DNA from: a virus
Virus record (IMG/VR): IMGVR_UViG_3300045988_126112
Location: 96,001-160,000 of that record
DNA: 64,000 nt
Strand: one strand, 5' to 3'
The notes under the pieces were generated by a model, which was given only the letters and a program-made list of their open reading frames with translations, did no database searches and was not told where the DNA came from. Shown piece by piece: positions 16,338 to 56,159 of this stretch. A program made the position numbers and the translations under genes. The stretch's first letter is position 1. Each line of letters starts with the position of its first letter.

Positions 16338-16363
16338 CATATAATAAGTTCTTATAAGTCTCA
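16338..16363. repeat. Right arm of the inverted repeat flanking the 78-aa gene
   Basis: 'CATATAATAAGTTCTTATAAGTCTCA'. It contains the palindrome CTTATAAG, as does the left arm. Confidence 0.7.
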
Positions 16364-16379
16364 CTATTATAATATATAA
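16362..16379 (-). promoter_or_regulatory. Conserved promoter-like motif, minus-strand variant
   Basis: The reverse complement reads 'TTATATATTATAATAGTG' (C to T at position 2). It lies upstream of the 78-aa gene in the divergent region. Confidence 0.45.
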
Positions 16380-39500: not shown

Positions 39501-41671
39501 ATAGCTGTTTCAGATAGTGATCTAAAACCTCTATCATATCTTTGAGTATAAGTATTACCATCAGCATCAATTATATCGTAATTTTGTACTAAATCCAAAG
39601 GCATACCTTGGATATTTCCTCCACCACCAAATCCTTGAGCTGTTATACGTCTCATATAATTTAATTCTTTATACATACTTTGCATATAGAAGAATATATT
39701 CTTACCATAATTATCTTTAGTATCTAATAAAAGATTAGTATTAAAAGAAGTCTTTTCAGCTTTTTTATTTTTCTTACCATTTAATTCTTTAGCAAATTGA
39801 TTATGATTAGCATTATTAAATAAATATGCATATTGTCCACTTTTTTCTATATCTTTAAAACGTCTAGTTTGATTGCCATATTGATCTTGCATATCTGCAT
39901 TATATTGCATCATAATATTTCTTGGTAATTCTCTTAATATAGATTGTATAGCTAATAAATTCTTTTCACTAACACCATAATCTAAATATTTTTCATTAAA
40001 ATTATTCTTTTGATAATCAATTATTTCACCTTTGTTATATGAAGTTTCAAATAGTTTTTCTAAATCTTTAAAGAATTGATCATATTCTTCTTTACTACCA
40101 AAAGCTAAATTTTTATTAGCTATTTCTCTTACTTGTTGCATAGGTTCAGATGCAGCACTTTTCCAGAAAGAATTTTTCATATTATCAAATTCTTTTTTCA
40201 TTTCATCATAAGTAACAAATTTACCTGTTTCATAATTAAATGTAGTTTCTTGACTTCCTGTAAGAGCTGATAATATTTTGCTTAATTGTTGTGGTATAAC
40301 TTCAGTTAAAGCTTTTTGAGATTTACCATTCCAATCAACTTTACCTTTGTCATATTGAGAAACATCTACACTAGTTTTTGGTGAATTTTTTATACCAAAT
40401 ACTTTTCCAAGCATTTTTTCTAGCATACTATCTTCAGAATTAGACATAGTATTTAATTTTGTAACCATAGATGCAAAGAATCCACCTATAGTTTTATTCA
40501 TATTATTAAATGCTTTTTCTAAATCTTTAGGTGTCATTCTATTAATCATAGAAGATAATAAAGCACCATATGGGTTTGCAGCAAATAATGCAAGCATATT
40601 ACTATTTTCACCAGTACCTTGCATCATCATATTCCAAGCTCCACCTGTTAATTCATTAAGATAAGAATTTGAATTTTTCATTATTGTTTTACCATATGCA
40701 ACTAAATCAGGCATACCACCAGCATCAACAACATCATTATATCCAATTTTATTTTTCTTACCTTCTTCACTATTAGTAGTAGCTTCAATCTTTCTAGTAT
40801 TCTCAGCTATTTCTCTTAATAATGAAACTTGATCTTGTAAAGCTTTACTTGTATTTGTAAAGAACTCAGTTGAATTTGATAAATGAGGTGTCAAATTTTT
40901 ATCCAAGTATTGCATTACGCTACCAATATTACTATTCATAGCATCTAAATGACCATTCATAATACCAAAAGCTTTAGTATTTTGAGTATATAAAAGATTT
41001 GTATTTTTTATATTTACTTTAGATGAGTATTCAGCACTTCTAGCAACAGCCATAGATATAGCGTTAGCATTAGCTTGTGATGTATTTTCTATACTACTAA
41101 TAGTTGCTAATGTTTCTTGAGCAGTTCCACTAGTTTTACTACCACTAGATGATGAATCAGTAGCTTCATCATCCCAATTATCGTCAAAATCAGAAAAATC
41201 ATCGTCCCAATCATCTAGATTTAAATCTCCAAGATCAGCACTAAGATTATCATCAAATCCAGAGCCCATGTCATCACTAAGCCCCATTTGTTTCATTTCC
41301 ATTTTTTCAAGACGTTCTTTATTATAAAGATTACCTGTCATTATATCTTCTTTAAGTGCTCTTAATCCTACATCAGCAGCTTCATAGAATTTAGTTTTCA
41401 TGATAGCATCTAATCCACGTCTATAAGTAGTACGATAATCCATAGCAGATTTGTATATTGTTTTAAATAAATCATTATTAGTATCAGAGAAATCTGATAT
41501 AACTGGATTCATTTGTTTCATCTTTTCAACAGCAACATATGTTATAGATTTACCTACATTATAAAGATATCCTTGTCTTTTACCTAATTTTTGTTTATTA
41601 GTTTCAACTTTAGGTTTTCTACTAGCATTCTTCTTTAATTGCTTAACAGCACTAGGACTTTTATTTGCCAT
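24545..41671 (-). CDS. Giant tape-measure-like virion protein (5,708 aa) with a C-terminal array of nine predicted peptidoglycan or cell-wall hydrolase domains
   Basis: One uninterrupted 17,127-nt ORF with SD AAAGGAGGT. The N-terminal ~2,000 aa are K/E-rich and coiled-coil-like. It has Gly-zipper hydrophobic segments and W/G repeats typical of tape-measure proteins. Recognisable catalytic motifs follow (listed as separate domain features). Confidence 0.8.
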   Translation of the reverse strand: MANKSPSAVKQLKKNASRKPKVETNKQKLGKRQGYLYNVGKSITYVAVEKMKQMNPVISDFSDTNNDLFKTIYKSAMDYRTTYRRGLDAIMKTKFYEAADVGLRALKEDIMTGNLYNKERLEKMEMKQMGLSDDMGSGFDDNLSADLGDLNLDDWDDDFSDFDDNWDDEATDSSSSGSKTSGTAQETLATISSIENTSQANANAISMAVARSAEYSSKVNIKNTNLLYTQNTKAFGIMNGHLDAMNSNIGSVMQYLDKNLTPHLSNSTEFFTNTSKALQDQVSLLREIAENTRKIEATTNSEEGKKNKIGYNDVVDAGGMPDLVAYGKTIMKNSNSYLNELTGGAWNMMMQGTGENSNMLALFAANPYGALLSSMINRMTPKDLEKAFNNMNKTIGGFFASMVTKLNTMSNSEDSMLEKMLGKVFGIKNSPKTSVDVSQYDKGKVDWNGKSQKALTEVIPQQLSKILSALTGSQETTFNYETGKFVTYDEMKKEFDNMKNSFWKSAASEPMQQVREIANKNLAFGSKEEYDQFFKDLEKLFETSYNKGEIIDYQKNNFNEKYLDYGVSEKNLLAIQSILRELPRNIMMQYNADMQDQYGNQTRRFKDIEKSGQYAYLFNNANHNQFAKELNGKKNKKAEKTSFNTNLLLDTKDNYGKNIFFYMQSMYKELNYMRRITAQGFGGGGNIQGMPLDLVQNYDIIDADGNTYTQRYDRGFRSLSETAIKDTRSENEKMSESTKKALERDRANKTFLRQQARRLEKGELLVNISDLDDETVRGAVRSNVQTNKNKDKLREEAEKEKTEFDKLKEEMGLSGKSFSSKFDKFAEKAQKYIKRPSSIMTDLAVKVDQGLFELIYGKEGENGKKSIKGILDHLLFEMKKSFNHFNEFMDEKILNPLKDRLGLDKDKGLIKGIYGKISEMFGLEEKKQGAKDFFKQVREKMSDTLKGIGTSITDSVKDVFSPLTNLFKSKNFFDKKKEDNNQEEFDEDDITTTVTKILRNYDFDNYDNLNGKQKFDKTKRSIEHARKVQSGESNNINDMFDINNIKLELKELDEETKNLKDIKEYRSLNMSVMTLRQQIRSVTKDLNDYNTQYLALRKSRNKQQQIKAKKVKAEIKKCKDTIAKLNDRLDKAMKRLKEMRDSNQNIEQELLDYDNARENIINKNNFNKYDIGQRQNVLNEQAYEYFQSSEFKNLPIEEQRRLAEEMLTGKDKNVVDQLKKSQDRLKELEKQNGTEIGRFRNFNGVTKDGKKNGMRKVNTELLQKIEKQKIDKLTKQIEQSIRSNDMSLPALRYLATLDNRYQGLLSEVSLNGESEDLNKQIAEIEKMIETGESNLNKNDPRSIAGLDLQYDKTAKQKLLDSFAGILGSEDGDMYDFVSKSIDKLFKDRDSNYADNFEGITIKDILGQKDSVIKDISDKKDVAIRAKQKIYNKKGTGYKMSENAPANKRIKELSRQIEDVEDTFNELTEFITDALGLKEDGTLDTGNGVEDIEALDAFDRIKKYNQSKERPEDQLDKDRPWSDNLTEGGSKFITDNKFIKESMQTQTSTTESIDSTLKQILNLLQGNGNKNQFKPGPRITPFMQNPLRNIEAGNEQAVLNDFMDGLTTDIQNAVKGYFGRVGIPGFAKGGVIDKDQLAIVGKGETVVPSLTGDKRNQIANQIREAMAKVQSGKWKDNKVHDQAKYLYQNIAAVMGADNVDPNIIISMLGRSGEVGNDFANLDNEDQQKHFVKIAKITQQALNQRNEGVINNSGNQTDKGVAGDYTNIFSETFQVYKRAINKTMEAIVGDKDGKKDKKVSANAMKEVMGEAKLYGPDVVSGALLGGGASLLTGFIGGPLLGAAVGSGIALTKNSAKVQAMLFGEKEFDKDGNYIGRKGGLLPKDFVNTVAKTFPDMKKYGIVGLLSGFTALNPLGPVPGLLIGSALGVAKNNATIQNRLFGETGIIGEDRWNKFKKNLPNILAGAGVGFGLNMLHLSGPFGVLGSILIGSALGYASTTDKFKEMIFGTYNPQTGEQEGGLIGFMKDKIFSPFINWAKRDILKPLKDAFKPITKQIGIMFKTVFGGIAKGIINFFNKTLVVPIKEKVGKFLSTIFSPFKNLGKRLLGTVGRIISTPARILGGIGRATQRHQIRVGTADDMTAEERLNYMNNQNEMDFFYDQSQKIKRDSFNNAAEEMEKRFGKKDANKLRFLMRTGFHDQAQDLIKKRFGDVKDEESKKVMQNMLKDTSNYKKYYGSRILRDTYYERKEAADNVKNQVDEQFEAYKKANPNSKVTREEYLQNIYGDKYNKKVKDNGYNNDEADKILASMTNDQLGEFVNQYKAFGVTDKEYEKNKIKAGKEITALLKNMNIGANGKLKIKDRNIILGGLNYGQSEMAINYLRKLAKDQGIKLDDNADFNKIMDLMNEFKITEDLRLDKEKGKNAYERKVKELARNSTKLGKELSLETFGKLAISEDRLRNLKGKVITPEDIKDDERNKKITEIIKGITDLNKSLTDKQDETNKLLEQIRDFKTGDEFQQRRANSKIELDDAVHRDEQVLSLDQKKRQILLRRIGIKSLDDQPDFVRKMPLADLQTYVKKYRTVSYKDIMKQYREEAEAKKAKEDEVKKTGEEEAKKQQDETAVEKIKKSVDTSEVKDGLSDDMKKSILDAEGNEVVMKRDSKTGQYETDSTDSSTRKSIRIAQRLREKQEAFYDSFSGLFKKNEKEEDEEKKSGGWLSKLLMALGIGKGLLGRAKGLLGGILGRGAIGGLFTRGIFGTIGKGALVIGGLMYLPEIIDLFKTKIGPAISENWDTTIKPWLTEEALPRLKDGLVLLVQEIPSLLKGTVKFIGSELIPSILKGMGWDIGTDDQEVTYDENGNPVNKGGKGTTSAAAVIGNTAVRSTVRKGARYASAVKTSVAKNIAKEGEVKTLTKSLSKEGVEEITEGAVKSGFKGGAKDIARAGFKTAKDFILHPVKTSVKGAVKGAKTVTNAGGKILGNKFLKMDAKRIAKRGGLSNKMEGKILTNVANSGLVSQLLNWAKNQFTKLFTNSTVVNLLGKVKNIPVAKALLERAVPKMLEVISKGAVKMSGTALARVVGGIGTGGLVTLGFAVYDFISGFKDARNIMGITEDNVPFGYRIISGVVKTIQGLSIIATLLPTKTIMSILINVLSGIGVDMGNIKQQQAQAQQELKEYNEKNGTNFSLEEYNKEVKGHKGLFDRAKDTAKWAGGKISETGKWIGNGAKNLGGKAIKGLKWLDQATLKGIGKWVDVNKWVGGKALEGLKWVNDNGINWAGDKMAGALTAMGNGAGQLWNGAKWLGNQAINGIGAGGKMLENGFNTAKNWTGNMLLSGVKGGANLMAKGLSAAANGIVDTPKMIGSLYNSISDWGKGILDGLTKQLSGWYDKNIKPVLDGIGKKFNDIKDWCSKFIQDPIKAIGEGFQSLLDWFKNKFGWVMKSKDWVSDKWNDAKSAAGNAWDTVKNGVKNVFTKKPSKDTNAKVSDIKTVNGMKVGKGEGDVVNGNPYFSQKQASGQFGQMINDAGCGPTSTAMALSKVTGKDISPESIAKDAYKNKTWDSEGARGNMFATEAKKYGVKTVSSGGNFEKFDKMVSAGIPTAVSGTLGKGEDSPYTKAGHIVTVFGKDKNGNYLVNDPRGKKYSKAYSKEELMNGFRDSWSFGKGDDDSSNSVPSSERVIGNVRNTIKSVAPSALSSSFRKKSTLALNHITKSVSGTGMIESASKVLEEIFTKIFNNDTIINLLGDASSSQYSAASVLLGNFVPQVIKKLKMNCEKNKSINLNRYLRAIVSNANVSNISFLISNFVNAFNNPAKYIGIYDTYTTGMKACAAILATINGRFVIDKLLPNTDWAKLIQDYVMPVFGEGPQDIDTLKKQADKIVKEFNLKSMSTNATTDTITSIAENLTGSTSASGGILNKIKNGAQSLFSKVTGGVSNVVHNVASGVKSVVKKAGNAVGNVYNTVKNAVASGLNWFGGLFGKGEYVGKGKDPAEVSQTDDSYLGVNNFPYFSQYKDYNTDKKKPELSETGCGPTSAAMVLSKVTGKMITPNEVADETYNAGVYDDNGSTDSMFPYLGNKYGIKVKSIDNFEQIKQYASRGVPMVISGEGGNLYGTDSDGHIVAMFGRNKNGYIVNDPSSINGSKSYDESQLKKGFKHAWVFGDTGYKEDIKDAEQVMLSSKDSKALALEDPNFAGKGSDPTTLTYVNGFPYWSQVAFGGNILKAGCGPTSAAMAFGQVTGKTLNPKDMCAQGKSHGWSPTAGVTDSSRLFNYYGKKYNTSVTYISSLSKTKELAAKGYPLIIDGRCSKSSNWSKNCLLTPYGPNGHYLALFGKTKDGYVINDPRGSRFSGARSESQLSTGFRFAFKIGDKTYKVDESKVKKVGSTDGQESSGSSSEGVSEDTGAEATGSNGDDFFGDMATAAINFGKKLFGFDISEASTDTTSSSSSGSPGSECTRYTGTNYKVGKSVKASFTAYYPHNDSMEGGFYDCKGNPLNPAEQTCAAPADVPVGTKIKISNTGTSLDGKIYTVTDRGGAIKIVNGVYRIDILVSASDYKNFQNCKGNITFMGKDGSAGKGPDIVDLTNPYYGMGEGVDWGYFCDPSKGSITSYFSEKRSQYATARGDHGALDYNVHFQPLYAPKSGTVYSENEHSSYGNSLTIKTNSGNTFYRVAHMKSKKVKKGDSVKQGQLLGISGATGHVSGPHVHLEVLKGGTSKSRNGVDPLNYYTETKGKHYKLKGSSLSFKEYMDKVGGEITEVNDGSDGTSDGTSDGTATEDTTATTTAGDFFGDMATAAINFTKKLFGFNIDEPAASDATTDDSSSSEYGSSSSDESNISAKNVAEKILKFTKAKGASDAASAGVLGNAWCESSFNPKADGKDKTGTYFGLFQWIRKYNNFDKLKKIAKSMNLEWSDTDAQMAFLWDQLQDSTHKVWLNQEYPKKGLNGFLNETDAYQAGSKFNKFFERGVGGGTRAKTAQTIYKKYLKDGKLVNFENFVSTGKGDDERYGKGDDKVKLSSKIIEYALSFLNKGFYYSQPNRDYINKNRNASDCSSFTHHVFDRAAGTEIGGYTEEQYLSSRGTKVKKGDLKPGDIILFKNTRSSRNGTTKYKDNVSHSSLYLGDNKYIESTTSDSSGFSGIRVANLGSSWSQNHWLTGKRFIDGDKKVSPTIKNPNKLTKFEKATGSYTLPEASVGNYSASHGGASSGDDTSTGSTAGEFFSDMATAAINFSKKLFGFDIDTPAASDATTDSSSSSDGSDLSSGTDYSSVKTKVSSSDFDKSVILGDSIAKGFKDMKVLPSSRVVATIGDTVAKGISDGNVAKAAAKKPPVIITHYGTNDADWISGGGSFNADWYSKQYTKLINKIKKESPKSKIVLTQTFTPSGGKTKKWVPVVQKALPGIASKNSVNIVDSRSIDKPSYRGSDHIHPISKEFYTKWLADIKSKITSEGKGEDTDLTKDIDRYFQDTLDGVKSSDFGIRDNEFHTGVDYAAKENTPIKSPVSGKVVENLKDKKYGFGNTLVVRDKKGIDHRFAHMKDQSSYGLGTKVRQNDIIGNVGSTGRSTGSHLHYEVTDNGKSLNPSKYYDKTAHGGTKNSLDKVTLSFPDSDQKVDANISNLNKGIDEKVLKQLITIIVSVLNKVANNTENIKEVVDLLTEIQKSITGKPATKTKTTKPTTKTSSDTDKTKTQKIFSLLQKGMNSTDSDTSNTQAILDILEILATE
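24950..25340 (-). other. M23 metallopeptidase domain, copy 2 (within the giant CDS; approximate bounds)
   Basis: 'HTGVDYAA...' and 'GSTGRSTGSHLHYEV', the HxxxD and HxH motifs of the LytM/M23 family. Confidence 0.8.
25390..25880 (-). other. SGNH/GDSL-type esterase domain (within the giant CDS; approximate bounds)
   Basis: Block I 'ILGDSIAKG', block III 'HYGTNDA', block V 'SDHIHP' (DxxH). This pattern fits SGNH hydrolases such as peptidoglycan O-acetyl-esterases. Confidence 0.7.
25961..26066 (-). repeat. Intragenic linker cassette, copy 3 (encodes 'AGEFFSDMATAAINFSKKLFGFDIDTPAASDATTD')
   Basis: About 93% nucleotide identity to copy 2 over ~107 nt by hand alignment (8 mismatches). Confidence 0.9.
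26270..26640 (-). other. NlpC/P60 cysteine peptidase domain (within the giant CDS; approximate bounds)
   Basis: 'ASDCSSFTHHVF' (catalytic Cys), 'KPGDIILF' and 'VSHSSLYLGDNKYIE' (catalytic His). Confidence 0.75.
26770..27190 (-). other. Lysozyme-like domain ('phage tail lysozyme' or transglycosylase type; within the giant CDS; approximate bounds)
   Basis: 'AGVLGNAWCESSFNP...GLFQW' resembles the G(I/V)LGN..(E)S motif of tape-measure-associated lysozyme-like domains. Confidence 0.55.
27251..27357 (-). repeat. Intragenic linker cassette, copy 2 (encodes 'AGDFFGDMATAAINFTKKLFGFNIDEPAASDATTD')
   Basis: Shares 'atctgttgtagcatcacttgcagctgg...aaatccaaataatttctta.taaagtttatagcagctgtagccatatc' with copy 3. 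Confidence 0.9.
27535..27900 (-). other. M23 metallopeptidase domain, copy 1 (within the giant CDS; approximate bounds)
   Basis: 'DHGALDYN' and 'GATGHVSGPHVHLEV' (HxxxD and HxH). Confidence 0.8.
28050..28340 (-). other. 3D (Asp-Asp-Asp, MltA/RlpA-like) domain (within the giant CDS; approximate bounds)
   Basis: 'FTAYYPHNDSMEGG...CAAPADVPVGTKIKI...GKIYTVTDRGGAIK...RIDILV' matches the typical layout of 3D domains in Firmicute cell-wall proteins. Confidence 0.6.
28385..28468 (-). repeat. Intragenic linker cassette, copy 1 (encodes 'DDFFGDMATAAINFGKKLFGFDISEASTDTT')
   Basis: Shares the core 'atatcaaatccaaataatttcttaccaaagtttatagcagctgtagccatatctcc.aagaaatca' with copies 2 and 3. Confidence 0.9.
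28600..29100 (-). other. C39-like (papain-fold) cysteine peptidase domain, copy 3 (within the giant CDS; approximate bounds)
   Basis: 'FPYWSQ...AGCGPTSAAMAF' (Cys codon about 29024-29026) and 'NGHYLALFG...YVINDPRG' (His codon about 28724-28726). Confidence 0.65.
29215..29700 (-). other. C39-like cysteine peptidase domain, copy 2 (within the giant CDS; approximate bounds)
   Basis: 'FPYFSQ...TGCGPTSAAMVL' (Cys about 29609-29611) and 'DGHIVAMFG...YIVNDP' (His about 29342-29344). Confidence 0.65.
30715..31190 (-). other. C39-like cysteine peptidase domain, copy 1 (within the giant CDS; approximate bounds)
   Basis: 'NPYFSQ...AGCGPTSTAMAL' (Cys about 31112-31114) and 'AGHIVTVFG...YLVNDPRG' (His about 30836-30838). 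Confidence 0.65.
35700..36240 (-). other. Cluster of three Gly-zipper hydrophobic segments (within the giant CDS)
   Basis: 'GALLGGGASLLTGFIGGPLLGAAVGSGIAL', 'GLLSGFTALNPLGPVPGLLIGSALGVA' and 'AGAGVGFGLNMLHLSGPFGVLGSILIGSALGYA'. Such segments are typical of tape-measure proteins. More occur near 33350-33545 and 32390-32470. Confidence 0.7.
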
Positions 41672-41946: not shown

Positions 41947-42471
41947 TTATTTTTTATTTTTCAAATGTTTTGGACAAGGAGAACTTGCTTTTACACCTTT
42001 ATGAGCTGGTGTTATAGATTCACCTTTGTCATAAGTTCCATCTTCATTTTTCTTAGGGAAATATGCAACTTTTTCTTCTGTTTCTTTAAGCATAAAGCTT
42101 ATATCAGAATCTGCTTTGCAGCCTAAAGATATTTTTCTTCCTGTATCTAAATATCCTAGCATGAATTCTTTAGATATATCTACTAAATTACTAGCATCTG
42201 CTTTTGTGAATTGCATGTTATTAGCTAATTCTTGAGCTTCTGCTGATGGTATTGAAGCACCTTTATTTATTATTGATGCTGCTAATTGTACTGCATTATC
42301 ATGTGGGCAACATTCTCTAACTACTTCACCTACATTATTATATTCTGCAGTCTTAAACTCTGGGTCATTTATCATTGCATGCATTACATCTCTTTCATCT
42401 TTTTTACTTTGTCCTTTTTGAGTTAATCCTTCATTAATTTCACTTATTAATTTTCTAGCGTTGAATTCCAT
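41947..42471 (-). CDS. Hypothetical protein occupying the position where a tail-assembly chaperone is usually found (upstream of the tape-measure-like gene)
   Basis: 174 aa with strong SD TAGGAGGT. The chaperone idea rests on position only; I saw no slippery site and no overlapping -1 frame. Confidence 0.6.
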   Translation of the reverse strand: MEFNARKLISEINEGLTQKGQSKKDERDVMHAMINDPEFKTAEYNNVGEVVRECCPHDNAVQLAASIINKGASIPSAEAQELANNMQFTKADASNLVDISKEFMLGYLDTGRKISLGCKADSDISFMLKETEEKVAYFPKKNEDGTYDKGESITPAHKGVKASSPCPKHLKNKK

Positions 42472-43399: not shown

Positions 43400-43449
43400 A
43401 AGCTATGTCCTCCTTTATTTATATAAAAGTACTTATTTTATTACATTAA

Positions 43450-43461
43450 TATAATATATAA
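43450..43461 (-). promoter_or_regulatory. Conserved promoter-like motif, minus-strand variant
   Basis: The reverse complement reads 'TTATATATTATA', about 50 nt upstream of the first gene of the minus block (start 43399). Confidence 0.45.
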
Positions 43462-44149: not shown

Positions 44150-44155
44150 TATTAT

Positions 44156-44191
44156 AAAGGATATAGTAAATATATCCTTTATTTTTATTTT
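44156..44191 (+). terminator. Terminator or attenuator upstream of the RNAP beta-like gene
   Basis: Stem AAAGGATATA/TATATCCTTT followed by ATTTTTATTTT. Confidence 0.7.
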
Positions 44192-44211
44192 GTCAAGGAG
44201 GTGGTATACTA

Positions 44212-47200
44212 ATGATATTATTAGATGAAGTACAAAAAATGAAATTAATAAAGAAACCATTTTATTTACCTTTAAATAAAGATAAGAAACATGGTAAAGC
44301 AGTATTATTAATGACTCCAATGTATGATAGTACTATAAGATTATTAAATAATCCATTAATAATAAAGAAACATTATGAATCATATTATTTAGAAAGAGAT
44401 ATGATGTATGTAATTAATCATGAAGGACATATAGATTATGATGCTACAGATGGATTGATTAATGAATATAATGATATTCTAGATGATATTAATGAAGCTA
44501 CATTAGCTAATCCTTATATAGGAAACTATAGTAATAATCTTAAAGAAAAGAATAAAGTAAGAAAAAGAAAGATGAGAAAATCTATTCATAAAATGAATAG
44601 AATAGGAAATTATGAAAAAAATAATGTAGGAATAGAAGGAGATAAAAAAGCTATAGGTAAAGAAGTAGTTAAAGATGATCCAGATAAGATATCAGATGAT
44701 AAATCAGTAGAAGAAATTTATGTTGGATATTCTGGAGATATGTATGTAGAAGATAATAATTCTCTTATAAGATATAATATAGGAGATAATAAGAATCTAT
44801 TATATATATTAGAAGCAGATCAAATATATAATAATCAATTAAAGAAATTATTATATAATGATAGAATGAAACAAAAAGGAGAATTGTTTGATATCTATAA
44901 TATGATTAAACAAGATGTAGATTATATCAAATATTGCTATATAGATATTAATAAATATAAAGCAAGAAATATGTTTATTGATACATTCTATTATAATGAA
45001 ATATTCTTAAATAAGAATGTATGGAAAAGAGATAAAGCTATTAATTTATACTTTGATTTAATGGATAGATTCTTAGATAATCCTAAAATAGAAAAAGATT
45101 ATGGTAGAATAGAAACAGTATTAGTACCAGTATTAGAATGGGTAAGAGAAGATGATGATTTAGATTTTACAAAGAGTATAAATTTCGTATCTATGGTATT
45201 AAGATTATTAAAGAATAAAGCTCATAATTCTTTACTTAATAAATGGAGAGGAATAAACTTTGTATTTATGACTAGTAAAGGATATTTTACTTGTGATTTA
45301 GGTTCTTTAGAAGGAAAAAGAGATAAAGCTAAATTTAGAGTATTACTTAGTAAATTAATTAATGGTGATAGTATTCAAGATGAAGGTAAAGAAGATTCAC
45401 CAGGAGCTATTAAACAAGCTATTACAGATAAAATAGAAGATGATGCTAAGATAAAACTTTATAATGCAACTGGAGATGCTGATAAAAAAGAAGCTAGTAA
45501 GAAAGAATTAGAAGAAAAGATAGATAAAGCTGCTGAATTATCATCTTCAGTAGATGGAGCATTAGATAAATTAGATGATGATGAAAGAGTTAAACAAATC
45601 TTAATGGATTTAGCTGCAGAAGAAGAAAATAAAGTTAAACTTAATGCTGCTAGAACTTCAAGAATGTTAAAAGCACAAGACAAATCAATGGAAAAAGTTA
45701 TTAATGGTAGATCAATAAGAGATATATTATCAGCTCAAAAAGAAGAAGTTGAAATACCTGAAACATCAATAAATATAGATTCAGTAAATGATGAATGGAA
45801 ACATATGACATTTATGAATTTTGAAGATGCTTATAATATAGATGAAGACATAATGGCTATTATATATTCATTCTCAGAAAAATCAGATCCAATAGCTATA
45901 TTAGATGTTGATGTACAAGACACTTCAACTTCTGAAGATAAAAAAGAAACTTATACAGTTAAAATGGAAGATGCTCAAGGTAAAAGATTTACTATTAAAT
46001 TTGATATACCTAAATTTATAGATAATAAATTCATGTTACTTAGAGGTAATGAAAAGACTATGAATGGGCAATTAACTTTAATACCAATATGTAAAACAGA
46101 TGAAGATACAGTACAAATTGTTTCAAACTATAAGAAAATATTTGTTCATCCATATGGTTCATCAGTAGGAAAATCAATGCCATCAGCAGATGTATTATAT
46201 AAATACTTAAATAAATATGATGGCAAAGATATAAAAATAGTTCCAGGTGATAATACTAAAACATGTCATAAATATGATTTACCAATAGACTATATAGATT
46301 TAGCTAAAGTATATAATACTATAGAAACTGATAAATATATCATATATTTTAATCAAGATGCTATAAGAGAAAAATATAAAGTTGATGATAAAGAAGAAGG
46401 TATTCCATTAGCAGTAGAAAAAGCTACAGGTAAAGTAAGATATTATCGTGGAGCTGCTGATACAACATGTACAAGTGCTATAATAAGTTTATTATGCCAA
46501 TCTAAAAATGGTGATAAACATAGAGAAGGAATTAATAATCAAAAGATTGCTAATAAGTATATGTATAGTAAAGCTAATATACTTAATGTAAAAATACCAT
46601 TAATAGTTATAATGGCTCATTCAGAAGGATTAGAAGAATCAATGAAAAAAGGTAATATTAATTATAGTATACAAGAAAAGAGATATAAACCAAATATGTA
46701 TGAAGATGTAATTAAATTTAAAGATGCATATATTGTTTATAGAGTAGATTATAATTCATCTTTATTAATGAATGGTCTTAAAGAATGTCCAACTGAAGAA
46801 TATTCAATTAAAGAAATGAATAATAAATCAATGTATATAGATTTCTTAGAATTATATGGTGGTAGAATATTATCAGATGGTCTAGACAACTTCTATGACT
46901 TAATGATAGATCCAATAACTAAAGAAGTTCTTGAATATTATAAACTTCCAACTGATTATTGTGAATTATTAGCTTATGCTAACTTCTTATTAGCTGATAA
47001 TAAATATGTAAAACATACAGATATGCGTTCAAGAAGATATAGAACTAATGAATTAGTTGCTGGTTATGCTTATCAAGCTCTTTCAGAATCTTACGGAGCA
47101 TACAAAACTGAACTTAAAAAACGTGGTACAGCTACAATGACAATAAAACAAACTGCTATTATAGATAAAGTAATGCTTGACCCAACTTGTGCAGATTTAT

Positions 47201-48729
47201 CATCATTAAATGATTTACAAAATGCTGAAGCTATAAATTCTGCAACATATAAAGGATTAGCTGGAATGAACTATGATAGATCTTATGATTTGGATAAACG
47301 TTCTTATGACCCATCAATGCTAAATCTTATAGGAATGGCTACAGGATTTGCTGGTAATGTTGGTTTAACAAGACAAACTACTATGGATATGAATATAGAA
47401 GGTAAAAGAGGATATGTTAAAACTATAGATGGTGATACTAGTCAATTATCAGTAACCAAATCATTCTGTCCTACTGAAGGATTAACTCCATTTGGGGCTA
47501 CAAGAGATGACCCATTTAGATCTGCGATGAACTTTATTCAAACTAGTAAACATGGTATGAGAATAAAGAATGCTATGCCATTATTAATGAGTAATGGTAC
47601 TGATATGGCATTACCATATTTAACTTCAAATACATTCTCTTTCAATGCTAAAGCTAATGGCAAAGTTATTGAAATTACTAATGATTATATGATAGTAGAA
47701 TATAAACTTACTAAAGAAGAAAAAGAAAGAGGATTACCAGAAAAAGATTTTATAGATTTAAGAAATACAATCAAGAAAAACTCTAATGGTGGATTCTATC
47801 AAGCAATAAAATTAGATACAGATTTAAAAGTAGGAAATACTTTTAAGAAGAATGAAGTAATAGCATATGATAAATTATCATATTCATCTAAAGTAGGTAA
47901 TACAGGAGATTTATCATATAATTTAGGTGCATTATGTAAAGTTGCTATGCTTACAACAGATGAAGGATTTGAAGATAGTGCCATAATATCTGAATGGTTA
48001 TCAGATGCATTAGCATCTAGAGTTGTTGTTAAAAAAGAATATGTATTACCAAAGAATACTAATATATATTACATGGCTAAAAAAGGTCAAGAGATTCAAG
48101 AAGGAGAACCTTTAATGATTTTCCAAAATGCATTTGAAGATGATGATGTAAATTTATTATTAAAGAATCTTAGTGATGATGAAGAACTTATATCAGATTT
48201 AGGTCGTGTTCCAATTCGTTCTAAAGTTACAGGAAGAATAGAAGATATAAAAGTATATCGTACTGTAGAAAAAGATGAATTATCAGAATCTTTAAGAAAA
48301 GAAGTTAATAAAATAGAAAAACCTATAAATGATATTAAGAAAGCTATGAATAATACAGATACTTATGATGCTAGTAAACTTGAACCAACATATGTACTTG
48401 AAAAAAGTGGTAAATTAAAAAATGTTGATGAAGGTGTATTAGTTGAATTCTATTTATCTTATTATGATAAGATGTCTGTTGGAGATAAACTTATATATTA
48501 TTCAGCATGTAAAGGTGTTGTAAAAGATATATTCCCAGCAGGAAAAGAACCTTATTCATTATTTAGACCTGATGAAAAGATTCATACATTAGTTCCTTAT
48601 TTTGGTGTAGCAAATCGTATAGTTTGCTCAATAGTGAATACTATACCTATGAATAAAGTATTAATAGAATTAGATAGAGCAGTTAAAGATTTATGTGATA
48701 TTCCATATAAATATTTAGATGAAGAGTAA
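44212..48729 (+). CDS. Highly divergent multisubunit RNA polymerase beta-subunit homologue with a ~590-aa N-terminal extension
   Basis: These blocks align by eye with bacterial RpoB signatures. 'KFMLLRGNEKTMNGQL' matches 'F.INGaERV..SQl'. 'FCPTEGLTPFG' matches 'ICPIETPEGPNIG'. 'TRDDPFRSAMNFIQTSKHG' matches 'HDDANRALMGANMQRQA'. 'GFEDSAIIS' matches 'NFEDSILVS'. 'GDKLIYYSACKGVV' matches 'GDKMAGRHGNKGVI'. 'LVPYFGVANRI' matches 'LNPLGVPSRMN'. Confidence 0.7.
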   Translation: MILLDEVQKMKLIKKPFYLPLNKDKKHGKAVLLMTPMYDSTIRLLNNPLIIKKHYESYYLERDMMYVINHEGHIDYDATDGLINEYNDILDDINEATLANPYIGNYSNNLKEKNKVRKRKMRKSIHKMNRIGNYEKNNVGIEGDKKAIGKEVVKDDPDKISDDKSVEEIYVGYSGDMYVEDNNSLIRYNIGDNKNLLYILEADQIYNNQLKKLLYNDRMKQKGELFDIYNMIKQDVDYIKYCYIDINKYKARNMFIDTFYYNEIFLNKNVWKRDKAINLYFDLMDRFLDNPKIEKDYGRIETVLVPVLEWVREDDDLDFTKSINFVSMVLRLLKNKAHNSLLNKWRGINFVFMTSKGYFTCDLGSLEGKRDKAKFRVLLSKLINGDSIQDEGKEDSPGAIKQAITDKIEDDAKIKLYNATGDADKKEASKKELEEKIDKAAELSSSVDGALDKLDDDERVKQILMDLAAEEENKVKLNAARTSRMLKAQDKSMEKVINGRSIRDILSAQKEEVEIPETSINIDSVNDEWKHMTFMNFEDAYNIDEDIMAIIYSFSEKSDPIAILDVDVQDTSTSEDKKETYTVKMEDAQGKRFTIKFDIPKFIDNKFMLLRGNEKTMNGQLTLIPICKTDEDTVQIVSNYKKIFVHPYGSSVGKSMPSADVLYKYLNKYDGKDIKIVPGDNTKTCHKYDLPIDYIDLAKVYNTIETDKYIIYFNQDAIREKYKVDDKEEGIPLAVEKATGKVRYYRGAADTTCTSAIISLLCQSKNGDKHREGINNQKIANKYMYSKANILNVKIPLIVIMAHSEGLEESMKKGNINYSIQEKRYKPNMYEDVIKFKDAYIVYRVDYNSSLLMNGLKECPTEEYSIKEMNNKSMYIDFLELYGGRILSDGLDNFYDLMIDPITKEVLEYYKLPTDYCELLAYANFLLADNKYVKHTDMRSRRYRTNELVAGYAYQALSESYGAYKTELKKRGTATMTIKQTAIIDKVMLDPTCADLSSLNDLQNAEAINSATYKGLAGMNYDRSYDLDKRSYDPSMLNLIGMATGFAGNVGLTRQTTMDMNIEGKRGYVKTIDGDTSQLSVTKSFCPTEGLTPFGATRDDPFRSAMNFIQTSKHGMRIKNAMPLLMSNGTDMALPYLTSNTFSFNAKANGKVIEITNDYMIVEYKLTKEEKERGLPEKDFIDLRNTIKKNSNGGFYQAIKLDTDLKVGNTFKKNEVIAYDKLSYSSKVGNTGDLSYNLGALCKVAMLTTDEGFEDSAIISEWLSDALASRVVVKKEYVLPKNTNIYYMAKKGQEIQEGEPLMIFQNAFEDDDVNLLLKNLSDDEELISDLGRVPIRSKVTGRIEDIKVYRTVEKDELSESLRKEVNKIEKPINDIKKAMNNTDTYDASKLEPTYVLEKSGKLKNVDEGVLVEFYLSYYDKMSVGDKLIYYSACKGVVKDIFPAGKEPYSLFRPDEKIHTLVPYFGVANRIVCSIVNTIPMNKVLIELDRAVKDLCDIPYKYLDEE

Positions 48730-48736
48730 CAATAAT

Positions 48737-48769
48737 ACCCAAGAGTATACTCTTGGGTATATTTTTTTA
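48737..48769 (+). terminator. Rho-independent terminator
   Basis: Perfect palindrome ACCCAAGAGTA/TACTCTTGGGT followed by ATATTTTTTT. Confidence 0.85.
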
Positions 48770-50572: not shown

Positions 50573-51235
50573 ATGAGAGGAAAAATTATAGACTTTGAAG
50601 GATTAGATGCAAGTTTCAAAGAAACTAATGTAAAAGCTCTACATACTTATCTTTTAGGAAATGGTATAAAAGCTAATTATGTTTCTTTTCCAAGACACAA
50701 TACAGCAGAAGGAACTTTTGTAGATAAATTTCTTCAAGGTAAATATGGGAATATAGATAGAAAGATAGTTGCAACTATGTTTGCATTAGATAGATTTGAC
50801 TATATTAAATGCGAAGATGTTGTAAAAAGAGTTGAAGAAGGTGAATGGTTCATATTTGATAGATATACACCTTCAAGTGTAATATATCAAACTGCTGAAG
50901 TTTCAAATTTAAAGAAAAGAAGAAATGAGCAAATGGATATACTTGAATATGAATATGTAAAACTTGAAATACCTGAACCTGATATTGTATTAGCTATGTA
51001 TTCTGATTATGATATGATGCTTAAAGCTATAAAAGATAGAGGTGAAGATAAAGATATATTTGAAAGTAATGCTGCTTATCTAAAGAAAGTTCATGATTGT
51101 TTTACTCAAGCTATAGAAGATTATGATTGGGTAAGAATTAATACCTATTCTGATCTTTCTGAACGTATATTTAAATCAAAGATAACTTTATTTGAAGAAA
51201 TAATTCAGACTCTTAAAGCTGAAAAGATATTATAA
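50573..51235 (+). CDS. tmk: Thymidylate kinase (type I TMPK) homologue with a non-canonical Walker A / P-loop
   Basis: It is collinear with TMPKs: 'IIDFEGLDASFKET' (compare 'IVLEGVDRAGKST'), 'VSFPRH' (compare 'RFPER') and 'FDRYTPSSVIYQ' (compare 'DRYAFSGVAF'). The GK(S/T) of Walker A is replaced by FKE. Confidence 0.65.
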   Translation: MRGKIIDFEGLDASFKETNVKALHTYLLGNGIKANYVSFPRHNTAEGTFVDKFLQGKYGNIDRKIVATMFALDRFDYIKCEDVVKRVEEGEWFIFDRYTPSSVIYQTAEVSNLKKRRNEQMDILEYEYVKLEIPEPDIVLAMYSDYDMMLKAIKDRGEDKDIFESNAAYLKKVHDCFTQAIEDYDWVRINTYSDLSERIFKSKITLFEEIIQTLKAEKIL

Positions 51236-51359
51236 AAAAATATCTTAATAACAATAAAGTATATAAATCATTAGTTTTCCTTTTTTGTAGAGAGGGAATG
51301 ACTAAGACAGTCATCGACAAAATAATAAATAATTTAAACGACCTTTCAATAGTTTCAAA

Positions 51360-51396
51360 CCCATCAAGTTGTAGAGACTTGATGGGTAATTTTTTA
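51360..51396 (+). terminator. Rho-independent terminator
   Basis: Stem CCCATCAAGT/ACTTGATGGG followed by TAATTTTTT. Confidence 0.8.
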
Positions 51397-51412
51397 TAGG
51401 AGGTATAAGGTT

Positions 51413-51895
51413 ATGGAAGATTTACATGTTAGAATTAAATATTTTGAAGGAGCTACACACTTAGAAGGAATATCAATAGGAGATTGGATTGATGTATATA
51501 GTAACGAAACAGTATATTTACATGAAGGACAATTTGCTTTAATCCCACTAGGATTTGCAATGGAATTACCAAAAGGATATGAAGCATATTTAATGCCTAG
51601 AAGTTCAACTTTTAAAAATTGGGGTGTAATACAAACTAATTCAGTTGGACTAATAGATGAAAGTTATTGTGGTGATGGTGATGAATGGAAACTGCCAGTA
51701 TATTGTTTAGAGCCTAGACATAGTATCAGAGGAAGTGAATATCCATGTACTATAATTAAAAAAGGTGATAAAATAGCACAATTTAGAATTCAAAAGAAAC
51801 AACCTAAATTAGCATTTGATGTAGTTGAAACTTTAGGTAATGAAGATAGAGGTGGATTTGGTTCTACTGGAACAACTAAATATGAAGAAAAATAG
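51413..51895 (+). CDS. dut: dUTP pyrophosphatase (trimeric dUTPase)
   Basis: dUTPase motifs present: 'LMPRSS', 'GLIDESYCG', 'GDKIAQ' and C-terminal 'RGGFGSTG'. Confidence 0.9.
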   Translation: MEDLHVRIKYFEGATHLEGISIGDWIDVYSNETVYLHEGQFALIPLGFAMELPKGYEAYLMPRSSTFKNWGVIQTNSVGLIDESYCGDGDEWKLPVYCLEPRHSIRGSEYPCTIIKKGDKIAQFRIQKKQPKLAFDVVETLGNEDRGGFGSTGTTKYEEK

Positions 51896-51911
51896 ACATA
51901 GTTATATTACT

Positions 51912-51950
51912 GGTCAAGGGTAGAAATATCCTTGACTAATTTTTATTTTT
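51912..51950 (+). terminator. Rho-independent terminator
   Basis: Stem GTCAAGG/CCTTGAC followed by TAATTTTTATTTTT. Confidence 0.7.
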
Positions 51951-52023
51951 AATTTTAAGCAAACAATATAAATAAAATATAAGGTATACTGAAAGTTTTC
52001 AGTAAGATATGGAGGTATGTATT

Positions 52024-54066
52024 ATGAGTAAAAATTTTGTAGAATTTAGAAATGCTGTTATGGATAAATTTTATGAATTATCAGATGTATGTGGTAATGC
52101 AATATTTGAAATGGAAGTAGGAGATAAATCTCAACTATGGGATGCTTATATAAATAATTTCCCAGAAGGAACAAATCCAATATTTAGAACTAATAGAGTT
52201 CATGATTGTAATTGTTGTCGACATTTTATAAAAGCAGTAGGTGCATTAGTAGGTATAAAAAATGGAGACTTAATATCAATATGGGATGTTAATCTTCCAG
52301 ATGATTCTGAATTTAAGGAACCAGCAAAAGCTTTATCTGACTTTGTTAAATCACAAGTTAAGATAAAAGATATATTCTGTACTAAATTTGATAGTTATGG
52401 AATAGCTCATAATTATAAAGAAATTGATGGAGAATCAGTTAAATTTAATCATTTTTATTTAGAAATTCCAGAAATGTACAAATCTAATAATTGTGACACA
52501 TTTAGAGGTGAATTTAGAAGTTCAGTAGCTGTATTTAAACGTGGCTTAGATGAATTTACACTAGAAGCATTAGATAATGTATTAGATTTAATAAATGATA
52601 ATAATTTATATAGAGGTGAGCAATATTTAAGAGCTTTAAAATCATTTAGAGCTTATAAAATTTTGTATGATACTATAGAAGATAGTAGAAGTAAAGAATT
52701 TTTCGCTTGGGAAAGAGCTACACATGAAGGTTCATCTGTAGTAAGATTAAGAAATACATCAATAGGTACATTACTTACTGATATATCTACAGGAATGGAT
52801 ATAGAAGAAGCAGTAAGAAAATATGAAATTATAGTTGCACCTAGTAATTACAAAAGACCTAAAGCTATATTTACTAAAAAAATGCTAGATGAAGCAAAAG
52901 AAACTATAACTGAATTAGGATATATGGATTCAATAGGTAGAAAGTTTGCTACTATAGATGATATGAATGTAAATAATGTTTTATTTATAGACAGAAATAC
53001 TAAGAGTAAACTTGATACCACAGAAGATATATTTGAACAAATGTCAAAAGAATGCGTTGTAAAACGTAAATCTTTTGATAGAGCTCAAGAAATATCAATA
53101 GAAGACTTTATAAATTTAGCACCACAAGCTAAATCTATAGAAGCTTTATTTGTACCTAATTTAGAAAGAAACTTAGTATCTTTGATAGCACCAAAAGTTA
53201 AAGATTCAAAATCTATGTTTAAATGGAATAATAATTTCTCTTGGGCATATAAAGGAAATATAGCTGATTCAGCTATAAAAGAAAATGTTAAGAGTGCTGG
53301 AGGTAATGTAACTGGTGTTCTTAGATTTTCAATACAATGGAATGATATAGATAGAGATATGAATGATTTAGATGCACATTGTATAGAACCTAATAGATTC
53401 CATATAAGTTTCTCTGATAAGAAAAGTCCATATACAAAAGGAGCTTTAGATATAGATATAATGAATCCATATCCAAATAGACCAGCTGTAGAAAATATCA
53501 TATATCCAAATAAAGAAATTATGATGGAAGGTAGATACTTATTCTTTGTTCATAATTATGCTTTTAGAGGTGGTAGAAATGGATTTAGAGCAGAAATAGA
53601 ATGTGATGGAGAAATATATCAATTTGATTATAGAAAACCATTGCAAGAAAAAGAAATAGTAAATGTTGCTGCTGTAACATTTGATAAAGAAAAGGGATTT
53701 ACAGTTGAAACTTTATTACCTGCTGATGTTATTAATAGAGAAGTTTGGGGATTGAAAACAAACACATTTGTTCCTGTGAGAGCTATATGCTTATCTCCAA
53801 ACTATTGGGATAACAATCAAGTAGGAGCTAAACATTATATGTTTATGCTACAAGATTGTGTGAATGAAGAACAACCAAATGGATTCTTTAATGAATACTT
53901 AAATGAAGAACTTATGAAACACAAAAGAGTATTTGAAGCATTAGGACATAATGCTAAAGTAGATGATTGCCCAAATCAATTATCTGGTTTAGGATTTAGT
54001 GCTTCAAGAAGAAATGAAGTTATAGTAAAAATAGATGGTAAGAAAGTTTATAAAATTAAATTTTAA
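52024..54066 (+). CDS. Large conserved-looking hypothetical protein (680 aa) embedded in the nucleotide-metabolism cluster
   Basis: ATG 52024 is 8 nt after GGAGG; the track ATG at 52009 lies inside the SD. It has a Cys/His patch 'HDCNCCRH'. I cannot assign a family. Confidence 0.75.
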   Translation: MSKNFVEFRNAVMDKFYELSDVCGNAIFEMEVGDKSQLWDAYINNFPEGTNPIFRTNRVHDCNCCRHFIKAVGALVGIKNGDLISIWDVNLPDDSEFKEPAKALSDFVKSQVKIKDIFCTKFDSYGIAHNYKEIDGESVKFNHFYLEIPEMYKSNNCDTFRGEFRSSVAVFKRGLDEFTLEALDNVLDLINDNNLYRGEQYLRALKSFRAYKILYDTIEDSRSKEFFAWERATHEGSSVVRLRNTSIGTLLTDISTGMDIEEAVRKYEIIVAPSNYKRPKAIFTKKMLDEAKETITELGYMDSIGRKFATIDDMNVNNVLFIDRNTKSKLDTTEDIFEQMSKECVVKRKSFDRAQEISIEDFINLAPQAKSIEALFVPNLERNLVSLIAPKVKDSKSMFKWNNNFSWAYKGNIADSAIKENVKSAGGNVTGVLRFSIQWNDIDRDMNDLDAHCIEPNRFHISFSDKKSPYTKGALDIDIMNPYPNRPAVENIIYPNKEIMMEGRYLFFVHNYAFRGGRNGFRAEIECDGEIYQFDYRKPLQEKEIVNVAAVTFDKEKGFTVETLLPADVINREVWGLKTNTFVPVRAICLSPNYWDNNQVGAKHYMFMLQDCVNEEQPNGFFNEYLNEELMKHKRVFEALGHNAKVDDCPNQLSGLGFSASRRNEVIVKIDGKKVYKIKF

Positions 54067-54084
54067 TAAATGGAGGTAAATACA

Positions 54085-54480
54085 ATGGAAAAAGTTAATA
54101 ATTTATTCTTAAAAGCTACAAAGGAAAAATTTAGATTCCCATATATGGGACAAATATCAACAGAAGATTTATGGGATTTATCTATCGAAAATCTAGATTC
54201 CATATATGGAAAACTAGATGAAGATTTAACTAGACTAAGTACAAAGACTTTAATAAAAGATAAAAAGACTGATATAGAAAAAGAATTAGAAGATAAAATA
54301 GAAATAGTTAAATTTATAGTTGAATTCAAACAAGCAGAAATAGAAGCTGCAAAAGAAAACGCAATGAAATCAGTTAAGAAACAAAAAATACTTGCATTGA
54401 TACATGAAAAAGAAAATGAATCACTAAAAGAAAAATCTGTTGATGAATTGAAAGAAATGTATGACGCATTAAATGACTAA
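54085..54480 (+). CDS. Hypothetical K/E-rich coiled-coil protein
   Basis: ATG 54085 is 8 nt after GGAGG; the track ATG at 54070 is inside the SD. The terminator at 54487-54535 follows. Confidence 0.7.
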   Translation: MEKVNNLFLKATKEKFRFPYMGQISTEDLWDLSIENLDSIYGKLDEDLTRLSTKTLIKDKKTDIEKELEDKIEIVKFIVEFKQAEIEAAKENAMKSVKKQKILALIHEKENESLKEKSVDELKEMYDALND

Positions 54481-54486
54481 TCAAAA

Positions 54487-54535
54487 AGCAATACGAGAGT
54501 AATCTCGTATTGCTATTATATAAATTTATTTTTTG
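54487..54535 (+). terminator. Probable terminator
   Basis: 12-bp stem AGCAATACGAGA/TCTCGTATTGCT. The T-run is about 12 nt distal. Confidence 0.55.
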
Positions 54536-54553
54536 TAAGGAGGAGTATGTAAA

Positions 54554-55735: not shown

Positions 55736-55742
55736 AAATGTT

Positions 55743-55772
55743 ATGGGGATAAGCTTAATTGCTTATCCCCAT
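55743..55772 (+). terminator. Possible terminator after thyX
   Basis: 12-bp stem ATGGGGATAAGC/GCTTATCCCCAT with a weak U-tract. Confidence 0.45.
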
Positions 55773-56159
55773 TGGAAACGTTTTAGGTTAAAATAATAAT
55801 ACGAAAGTTTGATGAGTAATATTTAGTATTGAAATCAAAATAATTAAAAGAGTTATATTTTTATATCGAAAAATAATATATTGGATTACTATATAGTTAG
55901 GAAAATTTTAAGCCCAATCATAATTATGATTGGGCAAATACTTAAATACATATTATTATATAAATTTGAAGGTACTTTGTTATGTGGTAATATAATAATT
56001 TCTACTATTATATTATATTATAGTTACTTAGAAATATTTTAAAATTAAAAATTTATGATTGTATTTTTTATGAGTATGATTTTTTTCTTTTTCAAATTTT
56101 ACAAAACAATTTAGTAATCAAAATTATATATAGAAATTTTTTTTTGGAGGGATAGAATT

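Follow-up and report, generated by a model that had tools for sequence, protein, structure and literature searches.

We analysed a 64,000-nucleotide stretch of viral DNA (positions 96,001 to 160,000 of the IMG/VR record IMGVR_UViG_3300045988_126112; hereafter the window), whose guanine-plus-cytosine (GC) content is 26% throughout, together with 10 kb past each end, so that 84 kb of the genome were read. An open reading frame (ORF) at 44212-48729 on the plus strand begins with ATG in the ORF list and translates into a product of 1505 amino acids (aa). A preliminary description made from the sequence alone had proposed that this product is a highly divergent homologue of the RNA polymerase (RNAP) beta subunit, of the multisubunit type known from jumbo phages. 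PHROG, profile, hhalign and Foldseek matches confirm the homology, and the protein, here called betaN, is very probably the betaN subunit of a virion-type enzyme. The gene and its parts are as follows.

44212-48729 (+): whole ORF, 1505 aa, assigned as the betaN subunit of a virion-type multisubunit RNAP (ORF list and translation; PHROG 3148)
44212-44421 (+): N-terminal module A, aa 1-70, conserved (conserved columns; pLDDT 90-97; hidden Markov model of its own clade, E = 2e-29)
44434-44820 (+): disordered hypervariable insertion site, aa 75-203 (pLDDT < 50; segment lengths in relatives)
44824-45381 (+): N-terminal module B, aa 205-390, mixed alpha/beta and conserved (invariant R218, N253, D257, Y261 and others; pLDDT 84-97)
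45382-45891 (+): charged helical linker, aa 391-560 (composition, helices)
45892-47436 (+): predicted equivalent of the N-terminal lobes of beta (protrusion and lobe), aa 561-1075, including an LRGNEK block (Foldseek; collinear hhalign path)
47437-48630 (+): predicted fork, flap (SBHM) and double-psi beta-barrel (DPBB), aa 1076-1473, equivalent to Escherichia coli beta 652-1110 (hhalign; profile against PDB RpoB)

Three PHROGs annotated as RNA polymerase beta subunit matched the ORF (3148, 14872 and 38251, with E values of 7e-141, 3e-129 and 1e-61), the protein has more than 1600 homologue clusters, and tblastn with betaN found 313 jumbo-phage records with a single matching place in each. The best tblastn matches, with ~31% identity over aa ~450-1495, were to Staphylococcus phage SA1 (E = 8e-128), Listeria phage LPJP1, PBS1 gp80+gp78, phiR1-37 g099 and Fusobacterium phages, and hhalign against the SA1 protein returned a probability of 100% (E = 1e-119). 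Bacterial RpoB was reached in three ways. The HDDANR and GDK regions carried a match (E = 2.7e-5) between a profile of 21 metagenomic homologues and bacterial RpoB chains in the PDB; when the family was aligned with E. coli RpoB in hhalign, aa 1076-1473 fell on beta 652-1110 with a probability of 90% (E = 1.6e-6); and an AlphaFold2 model of aa 540-1505, built from a 51-sequence alignment (pLDDT 83.1, pTM 0.80), matched bacterial RpoB chains in Foldseek (E = 3.6e-26, ~1100-1200 alignment columns). The profile and structure comparison with RpoB that had been proposed as a check of the assignment was thus significant (Foldseek, E ~1e-26), including in the DPBB region (hhalign, aa 1076-1473). A PDB search with the single betaN sequence gave chance matches to MS2 coat protein only, and Pfam RNA_pol_Rpb2_6 reached threshold in the relatives P0012 and P0022. 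From the model, residues ~560-1505 are predicted to have the architecture of bacterial beta, with lobes, fork, flap and DPBB. All five of the RpoB-like blocks that the preliminary description had picked out were found, as listed here.

46030-46075 (+): FMLLRGNEKTMNGQLT, aa 607-622, RpoB-like
47470-47555 (+): PTEGLTPFGATRDDPFRSAMNFIQTSKHG, aa 1087-1115, RpoB-like
47965-47990 (+): GFEDSAIIS, aa 1252-1260, RpoB-like
48481-48522 (+): GDKLIYYSACKGVV, aa 1424-1437, RpoB-like
48590-48625 (+): LVPYFGVANRIVC, aa 1460-1472, RpoB-like

Compared to bacterial RpoB, betaN shares the overall fold (lobes, fork, flap and DPBB) and keeps the equivalents of R678, E813-D814, K1065, K1073 and R1106, but the two are only 11-13% identical, the RHGN residues of the barrel are replaced, the C-terminal ~200 aa are absent, and betaN has an extra N-terminal region of ~560 aa with no counterpart in the PDB. 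The enzymes of this phage group also work without alpha, omega and sigma subunits (PMC7598289).

Each cultured homologue of betaN is encoded by one gene, for 1393-1484 aa, and has the layout of betaN; several carry annotations that point to the virion: phiR1-37 g099 is recorded as "phage structural protein", and the Klebsiella phage N1M2 and Serratia phage BUCT660 homologues as "virion-associated". AR9 gp078 is among the subunits of the AR9 virion RNAP (vRNAP; PMC5312081). In SPN3US, gp241 is entered as the vRNAP betaN in the mutant table (Table 2) and as a head ejection protein in the virion-protein table (PMC5694885). We made the comparison with gp241 through its counterpart in the SPN3US-like phage SPFM17, a protein of 1401 aa with neighbours of 537, 491, 240 and 267 aa; these gene sizes fit the masses of SPN3US gp240 (59.6 kDa), gp241 (159.1 kDa), gp243, gp244 (27 kDa) and gp245. 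The SPFM17 protein is homologous to betaN in the barrel region, at ~23% identity, and is of similar size (1401 aa versus 1505 aa). Like SPN3US gp241 and the phiKZ-like betaN proteins, betaN starts with a long N-terminal region, continues with lobes and a barrel like those of beta, and ends after the barrel. Experimentally, gp241 is a head ejection protein, and the vRNAP subunit genes of SPN3US, including that for the beta subunit, are essential (PMC5694885). The differences from SPN3US are the very low identity and the gene neighbourhood: the SPN3US gene clusters with those for beta'N, beta'C and the prohead protease, whereas betaN has no RNAP partner within 44 kb on one side and 25 kb on the other.

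The closest cultured relatives are AR9 gp078/PBS1 gp80+gp78, phiR1-37 g099, SA1 QPI17140 and LPJP1 QXN67858, which are 28-32% identical to betaN over ~1000 aa and share its GDKxxYYxAxK motif. Within this group, the PBS1 gene is broken by an HNH endonuclease insertion, whereas the gene studied here is intact, and the SA1 protein has no detectable N-terminal sequence similarity to betaN before aa ~520. AR9, PBS1 and phiR1-37 have uracil DNA; in contrast, this phage encodes ThyX, dTMP kinase and dUTPase and therefore probably uses thymine DNA. Thus, betaN is a new, uncultured member of the already described jumbo-phage virion RNAP betaN family, in which its seemingly odd features are normal.

Jumbo phages of this group encode two RNAPs (PMC7598289), and most record annotations of the homologues read just "RNA polymerase beta subunit". 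The protein could instead be the beta of the second, non-virion enzyme (nvRNAP), made after infection and transcribing middle and late genes, which we consider very unlikely. The beta of nvRNAP is split otherwise, into an N-terminal piece and a piece carrying the barrel with a C-terminal extension (PMC7824862), whereas this ORF has lobes and barrel on one chain and no such extension. The characterised homologues, moreover, are virion proteins. The beta pieces of the phiKZ and AR9 nvRNAPs belong to the same superfamily and the same phage group as betaN but have another split point, and they were not reached by PDB sequence or profile searches with betaN. Those searches returned no phage RNAP chain (PDB entries for the AR9 and phiKZ nvRNAPs exist but may be missing from the copy searched), and no experimental structure of a virion-type jumbo-phage RNAP turned up in them.

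The preliminary description had noted that the nearly invariant bacterial motif GDKxAGRHGNKG is substituted in this protein with the lysine kept. The substitution is real, but it is not special to this protein: it forms part of the consensus of 92 metagenomic relatives and recurs in cultured phages. We counted residue conservation in the alignment of this 92-sequence family and placed the residues on E. coli beta as follows.

48481-48516 (+): DPBB motif GDKLIYYSACKG, aa 1424-1435, with K1426 and K1434 equivalent to E. coli K1065 and K1073 (lysine in 91/92 at both) and RHGN changed to YSAC
47518-47520 (+): R1103, equivalent to E. coli beta R678 (RDDPFR versus HDDANR; 92/92; profile and hhalign alignment)
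47971-47976 (+): E1254-D1255, equivalent to E. coli beta E813-D814 (GFEDS versus NFEDS; 92/92 each; hhalign)
48616-48618 (+): R1469, equivalent to E. coli beta R1106 (GVANRI versus VPSRMN; 91/92; hhalign)

Across the family, the four RHGN positions are occupied by Y/F, S, A and L/N/C, and the consensus GDK-x-x-Y/F-Y/F-S-A-x-K holds for the 92 metagenomic relatives as well as for the Staphylococcus SA1, Listeria LPJP1, phiR1-37 and Fusobacterium phage homologues. The beta-side active-site residues, namely the two DPBB lysines, the E-D pair and the two arginines, are therefore all kept, and the RHGN substitution is a conserved signature of the betaN family. By its sequence, betaN shows neither the bacterial signature GDKxxGRHGNKG nor Pfam RpoB domains at threshold. 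Since RHGN, which adjoins the active site, is lost and no such Pfam domain is recognised, one might suppose that the protein resembles beta but is catalytically dead, and that it persists solely as a structural component or an ejected protein of the head. This is marginally less likely still than an nvRNAP identity, because the replacement motif is conserved in the family, including SPN3US-type phages, whose vRNAP genes, that for the beta subunit among them, are essential; because K1426, K1434, E1254, D1255, R1103 and R1469 are each kept in 91 or 92 of the 92 sequences; and because the more than 1600 homologues are evidently under purifying selection.

According to the preliminary description, beta is unsplit here, in one long polypeptide. 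This proved wrong, as the chain lacks the last ~200 aa of beta. In the hhalign alignment, betaN ends ~32-35 aa past the equivalent of E. coli PSRMN (1104-1108), and since the ORF stops so soon after this point, the rest of beta, including GEMEVWALE (1271-1279), is missing. The end corresponds to about residue 1140 of the 1342 in E. coli beta and is common to all homologues that we aligned. No ORF of the window matched beta 1100-1342. We also considered the three ORFs directly downstream (157, 240 and 114 aa) as a possible betaC, but these are kept only in near-identical genomes and are unlike the beta C-terminus. In SPN3US, a betaN of ~159 kDa is accompanied by a separate betaC of 25 kDa, gp218 (PMC5694885). 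It is true that lobes and barrel share one chain in betaN whereas the phiKZ and AR9 nvRNAP beta is split between them, which would favour a complete beta in one polypeptide as an unusual phage RNAP architecture. The shared end point near E. coli residue 1140 and the separate betaC of SPN3US make this somewhat less probable again than a dead protein, and betaN is an ordinary virion-type betaN piece rather than a complete beta.

The protein comes from a phage of the human gut: an identical sequence is recorded on the human-gut metagenome contig ERZ918339 k127_120508 (244,046 bp) and on four other contigs, and its cluster at 98% identity has 102 member sequences. No near-identical DNA was found among cultured phages, and a search of IMG/VR did not return this same phage. 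The surroundings of betaN comprise phage virion genes, a giant tape-measure-like gene, RusA, homing endonucleases and nucleotide-metabolism genes, and contigs with betaN relatives cluster at 200-280 kb. Six relatives are deposited in metagenome-assembled genomes (L149-L154) named Izemoplasmatales, Tenericutes, Bacilli, Solobacterium, Clostridia and Succinivibrionaceae, one of which is a single 246-kb contig. Probably, phage genomes were sorted into these bins by mistake, as if they were small low-GC bacteria, and the host cannot reliably be read from the bin names. That betaN might be the cellular rpoB of such a bacterium, as the bacterial names of these six bins could suggest, is next to impossible, given that its neighbours are phage genes, its homologues are jumbo-phage genes, contig sizes cluster at 200-280 kb and the bins are most simply explained as mis-binned phage contigs.

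No beta' gene is present in the window, as had been described: its ORFs contain no D[FYW]DGD motif and have no PHROG or phmmer match to other RNAP pieces. The suggested search for beta'-like ORFs beyond the window found none in the 10 kb past either end. When a beta'N profile was run against a protein database to find the beta'N of this genome, the candidates, among the best 120 of 2312 matches, belonged to other phages. Relatives carry both genes on the same contig at distances of 0.5-90 kb. One of them (L050) has a beta'N of 601 aa (PHROG 2986, E = 6e-66, motif GDYDGD) just upstream of betaN; in another (L158) the two genes are 9 kb apart; and in at least six IMG/VR relatives they are 40-90 kb apart on one contig, with ~45 kb between them in the closest of the IMG/VR relatives (53% betaN identity). 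According to a 2026 review, the distance between RNAP subunit genes of phiKZ can exceed 100 kb (PMC13282480). As a side observation, the beta'N gene of the relative L155 is flanked by genes (9759-9962 and 13666-13941) whose products match Pfam Tad2-like and Tad8. We take these two products to be anti-Thoris anti-defence proteins.

Upstream of the lobes, the preliminary description had reported an unrelated N-terminal extension of ~590 aa. The extension exists but is no oddity of this gene, as the PBS1 and phiR1-37 homologues have the same fold there. The first ~560 aa had no match in Pfam and no fold match in the PDB (best E = 0.12). An AlphaFold2 model of aa 1-600 (pLDDT 76) contained confident folds at aa 1-70 and 205-600 and disorder at aa 75-203, and in a Foldseek search of BFVD it matched PBS1 gp80 (E = 8.6e-18), phiR1-37 g099 (E = 8e-8) and the beta of Photobacterium phage PDCC-1 (E = 1.6e-5), with the matches to phage homologues spanning 400-700 columns. 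Residues 1-560 are thus a phage-specific region that the PBS1 and phiR1-37 homologues have in common with betaN. A search of the 84 kb read for paralogues of either N-terminal module found none. The enrichment of the N-terminus in K, E, D and N that had also been noted holds in part: the charged helical segment (the linker, described earlier as a charged coil) is real, with 14.5% K, 13% E and 12.2% D in aa 390-520 and helices predicted at aa 397-412, 424-443, 447-471 and 479-493. K, D and N, however, are just slightly more frequent there than in the remainder of the chain, and this richness therefore mostly reflects the 26% GC genome. The PHROG alignment begins at aa 395. A unique N-terminal region of the betaN subunit has been described before (PMC7824862; PMC5694885), and in 201phi2-1 the N-terminus is a propeptide cut at TFE-275, whereas it is retained in SPN3US (PMC5694885). 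Our best guess is that the N-terminal region serves assembly, head targeting or incorporation, or docking, rather than catalysis.

Between the two N-terminal modules, relatives have anything from 58 to 760 aa in place of aa 90-205; here the segment is 115 aa long and free of domains. Pfam matches in the loops of relatives included DUF6582, NUDIX, HAD, calcineurin-like phosphoesterase (Metallophos) and GNAT domains. Bacillus phages instead carry an HD phosphohydrolase as a fusion with betaC (PMC7598289). In the genome studied here, a 163-aa NUDIX protein (1302-1793, plus strand) and an 871-aa GNAT protein (6824-9439 in L099; its C-terminus is at 17-1252 of the window, plus strand) are free-standing, encoded ~43 kb from betaN, and BLASTP showed ~28-34% identity between these proteins and the betaN-loop inserts of the relatives P0012, P0014, P0020 and P0023. 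We tentatively suggest, as a possibility that we ourselves rate as doubtful, that in this clade the loop at aa ~75-203 might be an evolutionary docking site that loads enzymes into the head, to be delivered with the injected polymerase. If so, the virion polymerase would also bring in effectors that modify nucleotides or RNA ends or that acetylate, and these would act within the first seconds of infection. The pattern of loop inserts concerns the relatives more than the betaN of this phage.

The noncoding features around the gene and the promoter-like motif found in the window are listed below.

44154-44191 (+): hairpin and U-tract between a 91-aa ORF (stop at 44149) and betaN (folding energy, shuffles)
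44195-44201 (+): AAGGAGG ribosome-binding site, 10 nt before the ATG (sequence)
48735-48760 (no strand assigned): strong, bidirectional terminator-like hairpin, 6 nt past the stop codon (11-bp stem, 5 G-C pairs, T-run on the plus strand)
43444-43459 (-): AR9-like early promoter motif of the virion-RNAP type, facing away from betaN toward small leftward genes
1255, 3671, 16362-16377 (-), 43444-43459 (-), 59327, 61699 and 63912: copies of ATATATTATA-N4-TG, often with TATAATC just before

The hairpin reported upstream of the gene was confirmed, with a 12-bp stem (44154-44165/44171-44182) and a 5-nt loop, followed by AUUUUUAUUUU. Its folding energy is -12.3 kcal/mol (z = -4.4), and none of 200 shuffled sequences folded as well; with only 2 G-C pairs in its stem, it escaped a pattern scan. 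Judged by its sequence, it is probably an intrinsic terminator and possibly a leaky one. The motif ATATATTATA-N4-TG occurs seven times in the window compared to 0.36 expected, and all copies are intergenic and face the downstream gene. It has the same core and the same 6-nt spacing to G as the early promoter consensus of AR9, AAATATATATTAT-(6N)-G (PMC5312081). Several related loci have a motif site at a position similar to 43444-43459, and a shorter form, ATATATTAT-N6-G, was present in 87 of 162 loci, the majority of them from related phages (a raw count, with no chance expectation). The seven copies are probable targets of the betaN enzyme. The vRNAP genes of AR9 are expressed late (PMC5312081), and the lack of an early-promoter motif directly upstream of betaN fits such late expression. 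We gave no weight to a match to the AR9-like late promoter AACA-N6-TR ~115 nt upstream of the start, because so short a pattern is expected by chance.

We conclude that the ORF, in all likelihood, encodes the betaN of a virion-packaged multisubunit RNAP of an uncultured human-gut jumbo phage with a ~244-kb, 26% GC genome. Several points weigh against this conclusion. Pfam found no family on the betaN protein at E <= 1. Although aa 561-1075 are modelled as the beta lobes, the sequence alignment there is not significant: the best hhalign path, from aa ~582-1071 to E. coli beta 104-589, is collinear and pairs the LRGNEK block DIPKFIDNKFMLLRGNEKTMNGQL with E. coli INGTERV, at E = 0.07. The Foldseek output came without aligned ranges, and the promoter motif was defined post hoc, after inspection of the data. 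Searches by motif, PHROG and phmmer found no beta', betaC or nvRNAP genes in the 84 kb read, so that the partner set is drawn from relatives only. Likewise, a virion location, activity and promoter specificity for this betaN would follow by analogy with characterised relatives.

By that analogy, with SPN3US, phiKZ and AR9 as the characterised relatives, the partners of betaN would be a small betaC, made as a separate piece, and three beta' pieces (N, middle and C) encoded tens of kb away. The complex would assemble late in infection, be packed into the head and be ejected with the DNA. It would then, with neither alpha nor sigma subunits, transcribe early genes from AT-rich promoters, with no need for the rifampicin-sensitive RNA polymerase of the host. 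The ATATATTAT-(6N)-G sites, of which the window has seven, are probably those that the virion RNAP recognises. The protein is ordinary for its family, and the main value of the result is a correct annotation: a 1505-aa "hypothetical" gene without a Pfam match can now be named, and an abundant uncultured lineage of human-gut jumbo phages can be counted with those that supply their own machinery for transcription. The AlphaFold2 model, the alternative barrel motif, the AR9-like promoter and the variable N-terminal site offer handles on alpha-less assembly, sigma-less promoter finding and passage through the tail.

Several neighbouring genes are of interest in their own right. A 5708-aa ORF (24545-41671, minus strand) adjoins betaN; its C-terminal half matches lysozyme/endolysin-like and M23 metallopeptidase PHROGs as well as tape-measure families, its first 2875 aa have no match of any kind, and its length is exceptional for a tape-measure or ejection protein. 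Divergently upstream of betaN lies a 174-aa ORF (41947-42471, minus strand), which is kept near betaN in 63 related loci and is downstream of the early-promoter-like site at 43444-43459; considered as an RNAP piece, it was rejected, having no PHROG, RpoB/RpoC or PDB similarity. On the other side, genes for dTMP kinase, dUTPase, ThyX and class I ribonucleotide reductase are clustered at 50573-58238 (plus strand). A 685-aa protein (52009-54066, plus strand) matches PHROG 1735, of unknown function (E = 2e-231), and is highly conserved in jumbo phages. Pfam DUF8224 matches the product of the overlapping gene call in L002, and a search by sequence found no relative of solved structure for the 685-aa protein. 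Just left of the window, a 468-aa endonuclease (PHROG 15137; 4214-5620 in L099) is probably a mobile homing endonuclease, and its region shares a 334-nt stretch of 69% identity with an unrelated region of the phage L155. The ribonucleotide reductase has 692 aa here (56160-58238); that of the 98%-related genome L001 (22748-24518) contains an intein plus an HNH domain and reaches 927 aa, a difference that is a mobile-element polymorphism between near-identical phages.

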